DNA of 64,000 bases from Isurus oxyrinchus (lineage: Eukaryota), in NCBI GenBank assembly GCA_026770705.1, contig JANJGN010000033.1:15562001-15626000 (forward strand). The letters run 5' to 3'. Of the stretch, positions 17,962-18,033 are shown piece by piece; positions within the stretch are counted from its first letter, which is position 1; each line of letters opens with the position of its first letter. The translations under genes were made by a program, and so were the position numbers. The notes beneath the pieces were generated by a model. The model worked only from the letters and a program-made list of their open reading frames with translations. It was not told the DNA's origin and made no database searches.

Positions 17962-18033
17962 GGTTCCATGGTGTAATGGTGAGCATTCTGGACTCTAAAT
18001 CCAGCGATCTGAGTTCAAATCTCGGTGGGGCCT
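17962..18033 (+). tRNA. tRNA-Gln body with CTA anticodon (candidate amber suppressor)
   Basis: CTGGA-CTCTAAA-TCCAG, anticodon at 17995-17997; other changes give G-T pairs; A/B boxes and T4 present. Confidence 0.75.

Follow-up and report, generated by a model that had tools for sequence, protein, structure and literature searches.

Stop-anticodon copies in redundant, fast-mutating tRNA-Gln arrays of the shark Isurus oxyrinchus: an amber-reading gene as probable mutational load

A tRNA-Gln-derived gene with an amber-reading CTA anticodon, embedded in a tandem tRNA-Gln array of the shark Isurus oxyrinchus, probably belongs to the mutational load of a redundant, fast-mutating array and has little effect on translation. 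The gene lies in a 64,000-nucleotide stretch of the 4.98 Gb assembly (C33:15,562,001-15,626,000; hereafter the window), the first 47 kb of which are occupied by arrayed tRNA-Gln genes whose two slots, CTG-slot and TTG-slot, alternate and lie about 375 bases apart; one gene of each slot makes up a repeat unit of about 1.4 kb. Array 1 comprises 94 full-length copies and runs from C33:15,535,963 into the window, and array 2, built of the same unit, lies about 1 Mb away on the opposite strand (C33:14,502,059-14,574,247) and comprises 80 copies. For the census of copies 200 kb more of contig C33 was added, covering both ends of each array. The anticodon of the 174 full-length copies is CTG in 98, TTG in 67, CTA in four, TTA in two, and ATG, CTT and TTT in one each; a further 13 partial or gapped matches gave no additional CTA or TTA where the anticodon was covered. 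Genome-wide, the arm pattern returned 140 matches, and among the 100 matches listed at least 27 were off C33, at least 19 of these with CTG or TTG. The features discussed below are located in Table 1.

Table 1. Positions of the amber-reading copy, its parts, its relatives and other elements of the arrays. Positions are those of the window unless a locus (L) or contig (C) is named.
Feature	Position	Strand	Remarks
tRNA-Gln-derived gene, CTA (amber-reading) anticodon	17962..18033	+	72 nt, no broken pair, 5 G-U pairs
Anticodon CTA	17995..17997	+	G36 to A at 17997
A box, positions 8-19	17969..17979	+	same sequence as array majority; location by established tRNA numbering
B box, positions 53-61	18013..18021	+	same sequence as array majority
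T4 run, minimal RNA polymerase III terminator	18039..18042	+	five bases past gene end
G69 and G70	18029..18030	+	adjacent wobbles U4-G69 and U3-G70 in acceptor stem; both also in CTG copy 41865
Cluster of private changes C25U, G36A, C50U	17986..18010	+	all common to L003:476-547
Inner 5' flank	17942..17961	+	hypervariable array-wide; identical to close sister units here
Repeat-unit part (CTG-slot and TTG-slot gene)	17546..18741	+	ungapped register with 16146-17341
Sister copy, anticodon CTG	16562..16633	+	1400 bp upstream, 5 gene positions differ
Closest gene sequence, anticodon CTG	41865..41936	+	3 differences; sister on unit tree
TTG-slot partner of the CTA copy's unit	18338..18409	+	degenerate; 44.4 bits
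Window part of array 1	908..47322	+	array begins C33:15,535,963
Second CTA copy	L003:476-547 = C33:15,552,476		59.6 bits, three G-U pairs, A10-U25 pair, intact
Third CTA lineage	L004:4315-4386; L004 near 7410		broken anticodon-stem pair; 5' part deleted
Two ochre-type TTA copies, array 2	L015:1705-1776; L012:2059-2130	-	2 and 3 broken pairs
TTT, CTT and ATG copies (grouped)	27797-27868; L005:3963-4034; L015:9032-9103		
Arrays with raised gene and upstream divergence	908-47322; L003-L005; L012-L019		
Minisatellites and simple repeats past array	49063-49961; 57462-58863; 59639-60152; 61691-62703		

The CTA anticodon claimed in the preliminary description is borne out by the sequence and by ARAGORN, within a fully paired stem, and the claimed A box, B box, downstream T4 and CTG sister exactly 1400 bp upstream are all present. 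With CTA at positions 34-36, a 7-base loop, a paired anticodon stem, both boxes and a T-run terminator, the gene has the make-up of a predicted Sup-CTA gene, and its Gln-array body and possible cloverleaf pairs place it in the tRNA-Gln family. In the ungapped register of the two sister units, followed up to 17277, 21 positions differ, five of them inside the CTA gene. Compared with the majority of the 174 copies the CTA copy also has five differences, C25U, G36A, C50U, A69G and A70G, and the four outside the anticodon all make G-U pairs (G10-U25, U50-G64, U3-G70 and U4-G69), giving a total of five with the native U13-G22. It had been stated earlier that the differences other than the anticodon only create such pairs, which is true of all of them, but four were added and not three; U4-G69, already present in the local subfamily, had been missed because the sister used for comparison has that pair too.

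All 12 invariant bases checked are kept in the CTA copy. Against RF00005 it scores 58.3 bits and ranks 43rd among the 110 matches in the six stretches scanned, with 67.1 bits for the sister at 16562. Held in the cloverleaf, its folding energy is -18.8 kcal/mol, as against -23.6 kcal/mol for the majority sequence, and 70 of the 174 copies are as stable or more so; free folding (MFE) was rejected as a discriminator, a non-cloverleaf being obtained even for the majority and the sister. ARAGORN also detects the gene, reads its anticodon as cta and names it 'Pyl', a label driven by the anticodon only, and a tRNA-Pyl identity was rejected, the body being 93% identical to the array Gln majority.

Among six closely related units, that of the CTA copy has three private changes, all in the gene within 25 bases, and none elsewhere from -335 to +372, about 630 flanking bases that include the 5' flank. 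The same three changes are found in the second CTA copy, which lies 27 kb upstream in another clade, and an exact 37-base tract is common to both, despite strongly different flanks (about 55 differences in 400 bases). U25 is present in only three slot-A copies, two of them CTA, a sharing that on its own has a chance of about 0.07. A short gene-conversion tract is likely the simplest account of the three clustered changes. The preliminary description had held a base-call error to be a serious alternative, and near-identical repeats are indeed hard to assemble and polish; nevertheless, since the changes recur as one tract in the L003 copy, a random base-call error at 17997 is unlikely. Given also that the third CTA lineage is found in two duplicated units, and that all three private changes are transitions, we consider an assembly or base-call error at this position very improbable.

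The CTA copy had been described as single, and this holds only inside the window, where there is one exact match to its arm (none in 100 shuffles). A count of CTA and TTA copies in the rest of the array had been proposed; as run on both arrays, it accounts for the four CTA and two TTA copies given above. The CTA copies fall into three clades and two of the four are damaged, and the third CTA lineage and both TTA copies appear to be independent in origin. Two further candidates were rejected: a CTA arm match on C8 (L023), at first sight a retroposed suppressor, lacks any tRNA body and matches over 21 bases by chance, and a locus on C14 (L024) is a decayed TTA copy where ARAGORN makes no call.

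The frequency of such copies was compared with that of other changes on unit trees (81 units for slot A, 83 for slot B), in which each unit comprised the gene and 200 bases on each side. Ten of the 174 copies were left out of the trees: three had incomplete flanks, six had mixed flanks (one TTA copy among them), and one was the 5'-truncated CTA copy. By parsimony, position 36 changed from G to A four times (P(>=4)=0.18), or five times when the omitted TTA copy is added (P(>=5)=0.07), as compared with an average of 2.19 events over 16 other G sites outside CpG; these figures are based on four to six events and on trees distorted by gene conversion. At five of the 16 other sites the copies bearing A are as many as at position 36, or more, and under the neutral rate such copies would be missing from an equally large array only 11-17% of the time. 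Structural integrity, taken as all pairs and all 12 invariants, was found in 48 of the 174 copies, 46 of them CTG or TTG and two CTA. We found no excess of stop-anticodon events (P=0.18) and no preferential integrity of stop copies (two of six intact, against 46 of the remaining 168; Fisher P=0.67), both on small numbers. Event counts and integrity, both at the neutral level, give no indication that selection favors or opposes the stop copies, and G36A is neither enriched nor purged in the arrays. There is consequently no support for the CTA copy being special, stop anticodons arising at the rate of any other non-CpG G-to-A change, and neutral decay, an alternative that the preliminary description itself had offered, fits best. 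Its proposal that redundancy allows such a copy to persist agrees with the 46 intact CTG or TTG copies that stand beside the two intact CTA copies.

Two findings would favor a programmed suppressor under selection, or the beginning of a ciliate-like UAG-to-Gln recoding: a G36A count at the upper end of the per-site values (four to five events as against 2.2) and the seeming copying of this change between units. However, the excess of events is not significant, the CTA copies are as scattered and as often damaged as described above, and the histone genes point the other way. In 39 histone ORFs from 20 loci the stop codon was TAA in 23 and TGA in 16, Gln was encoded by CAG 216 times and by CAA six times, and no gene of the sample ended in TAG; an internal TAG was found in only nine of the 150 scored histone-family matches. 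Recoding of UAR in the ciliate manner is excluded by histone stops and Gln codon usage, in a sample without terminal UAG, and we regard selection or incipient recoding as extremely improbable. The histone loci themselves belong to very large gene clusters (L030-L049, on contigs C37, C40, C48, C50 and C73), with 2496 first-look candidates.

Other observations concern the make-up of the arrays. Three copies of array 1 are on the minus strand in a local inversion (window ~8900-10776), and the anticodon loop is lost through a shared deletion of 7 bases in window copies 4400-4464 and 46891-46955 and in L004:2475-2539. Switches to anticodons other than stops also occur in Gln bodies, namely TTT and CTT (Lys-type) and ATG (His-type), and all three copies are damaged; a four-base 'ctga' call by ARAGORN in L019 turned out to be a degenerate CTG copy. 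In none of the 87 units with the relevant flank do TTG-slot genes of either array (e.g. window 16938-17009) have a T4 in the first 60 bases downstream: the first T4 is at 65-96 bases in 42 units, and none is present within 200 bases in the other 45. Their transcripts may end at interrupted T tracts or carry long trailers. Beyond the end of the array, the window contains minisatellites with periods of 69, 32, 140 and 42 and purine-skewed simple repeats.

The way in which the arrays mutate bears on the activity of their genes. On the unit trees, changes per non-CpG column were 2.29 in the gene, 1.91-2.08 in the distal spacer and 6.6 in the 20 bases upstream. Between units that diverged recently (36 pairs in array 1 and 37 in array 2) differences per site in arrays 1 and 2, respectively, were 0.037 and 0.026 in the gene, 0.054 and 0.088 in the inner 5' flank, and 0.023 and 0.038 in the first 10 bases downstream, with 0.010-0.020 in other flanks and spacers (0.012-0.020 in array 1 spacers). 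Relative to the spacers, divergence between recent sister units is thus two to three times higher in gene bodies and four to six times higher in the 20 bases upstream. The sister pairs were picked on the distal spacers, which lowers those two rates; a fair comparison is therefore with the 21-40 and 11-40 flanks. The gene figure may also be raised by conversion between genes. A transcription-linked mutation pattern is seen both in the tree counts and in the recent sister pairs. The variable 5' flanks looked palindromic by eye, an impression that was rejected when only 51% of 101 distinct flanks folded better than shuffles.

Transcription-associated mutagenesis in tRNA genes has been reported by Thornlow et al. 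to leave this flank pattern, more strongly at active genes, with conservation of the mature sequence (PMC6130373). Since the shark arrays have the flank pattern and lack the conservation of the gene, we infer that they are transcribed in the germ line now or were so recently, and single copies would be under little purifying selection. CpG sites in the genes decay on the unit trees as fast as in the spacers or faster, which suggests that the arrays may be methylated during part of the germline cycle.

Taken together, we propose that the CTA copy arose as mutational load in the following manner. Germline transcription by RNA polymerase III would drive mutations in the array, redundancy would lift selection from single copies, and the G36A tract would have entered the CTA unit by gene conversion. 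Any CTA transcript would then be diluted among many sense copies, the tRNA would be weakened by its five G-U pairs and by altered synthetase contacts, and at normal stops it would be outcompeted by release factor.

It is also conceivable that the copy is an unselected but active suppressor, the array being transcribed in oocytes or germ cells and the two intact CTA genes giving a Gln-charged tRNA(CUA) with low but measurable readthrough of UAG. Boxes, stems and T4 are all intact and no pair is broken; two CTA genes among 48 intact copies would not be trivial if copies were transcribed equally; and the variability of the inner 5' flank described above implies array transcription now or recently. 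Zebrafish egg tRNAs come from repetitive arrays, which supply maternal tRNA (PMC11417395). Human tRNA-Gln edited to read UAG or UAA has been screened for suppression, and anticodon-edited forms suppress strongly, Gln-UAA giving more than 2000-fold suppression over background and an about 2-fold rise in ribosome density in 3'UTRs (10.1101/400127). Basal readthrough at normal stops is 0.001-0.1% (PMC8244042). Furthermore, the second CTA copy, at L003, with only three wobbles, the pair A10-U25 and 59.6 bits, is by its sequence a better suppressor candidate than the window copy.

Against such activity, the window copy carries five G-U pairs, two of them adjacent in the acceptor stem, and its wobbles outnumber those of 46 intact copies out of 48. 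Glutamine identity in E. coli uses pairs 3-70 and 10-25 and G36 (PMC9976931), and in the CTA copy both pairs are wobbles and G36 is replaced, although these identity rules are those of a bacterium, and the vertebrate enzyme may follow others. CCACCA marking and subsequent decay are set off by a 5' GG where the acceptor stem is unstable (PMC10275265). The transcript of the CTA copy would be diluted among 165 CTG or TTG copies and at least 19 dispersed arm matches, the decay of CpG in the genes may point to germline methylation for part of the cycle, and the 5' flank of the CTA unit itself bears no private change. We therefore consider an active suppressor unlikely. Still more speculative, and in our opinion doubtful, is the broader scenario in which maternal arrays with a high mutation rate and gene conversion spread stop copies, two of the 48 intact copies are charged, and eggs tolerate measurable UAG readthrough.

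The same position-36 change in a tRNA-Gln body is found in E. coli supE and other classical amber suppressors for Gln. The edited human tRNA-Gln(CUA/UUA) resemble the shark gene in this same change (10.1101/400127). Edited or selected suppressors have an otherwise intact body and were shown to work, whereas the shark candidate is natural and has four extra G-U pairs. Ciliate tRNA-Gln genes for reassigned UAA and UAG likewise have a Gln body with a CUA or UUA anticodon (PMC9858662, PMC11687900); in ciliates, however, the code is reassigned genome-wide, whereas the shark histone genes use UAA as an ordinary stop and the stop-anticodon copies are rare and decaying.

Predicted suppressor tRNAs are commonplace in fish genome annotations, with 10 in blue catfish (PMC9270728), and two in medaka, one in guppy and none in mosquitofish (PMC5982815), and Sup-TTA is predicted in 21.65% of surveyed eukaryotes (PMC9858662). 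A zebrafish Sup-TTA gene is part of a read-filtered reference but shares a cluster with Lys-TTT, from which its expression cannot be told apart (PMC11417395). These fish predictions resemble the present case in joining a sense body to a stop anticodon in a many-copy vertebrate genome, as predictions only, but as reported in these sources they give totals, whereas here array placement, counts of origins, a neutral expectation and a likely conversion tract are provided (PMC9270728, PMC5982815, PMC11417395). In rust fungi a mobile element is the source of Sup-CTA calls (PMC10886601), which counsels caution with calls of this kind. In nematodes, rare anticodon-switch alleles have been read as mutation load, as is proposed here for the shark copies; the terms 'suppressor' and 'stop codon' are absent from the main text of that paper (PMC13010820).

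Zebrafish maternal arrays are similar in having many tandem copies in a repetitive region and few dispersed genes, but egg expression is shown in zebrafish and would be only a deduction for the shark arrays (PMC11417395). Human tRNA genes share with the shark arrays the hypervariable inner 5' flank and the excess of transitions of transcription-associated mutagenesis, but active human genes keep the mature sequence, whereas in the shark arrays gene bodies outpace spacers (PMC6130373). In the literature searched, with most subscription papers outside it, we found no report of stop-anticodon copies in shark tRNA arrays and no natural cognate suppressor shown working in a vertebrate.

An inert CTA copy would be one more ordinary case of a redundant tRNA array decaying. 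Were the copy expressed and charged, this vertebrate would possess a natural amber suppressor that is fully cognate, through which the stop-codon readthrough tolerated by eggs could be measured, with a bearing on how safe suppressor-tRNA therapy is and on the first steps of ciliate-type recoding. Furthermore, tRNA bodies that mutate faster than their own spacers offer a clean setting for transcription-associated mutation without the usual purifying selection.
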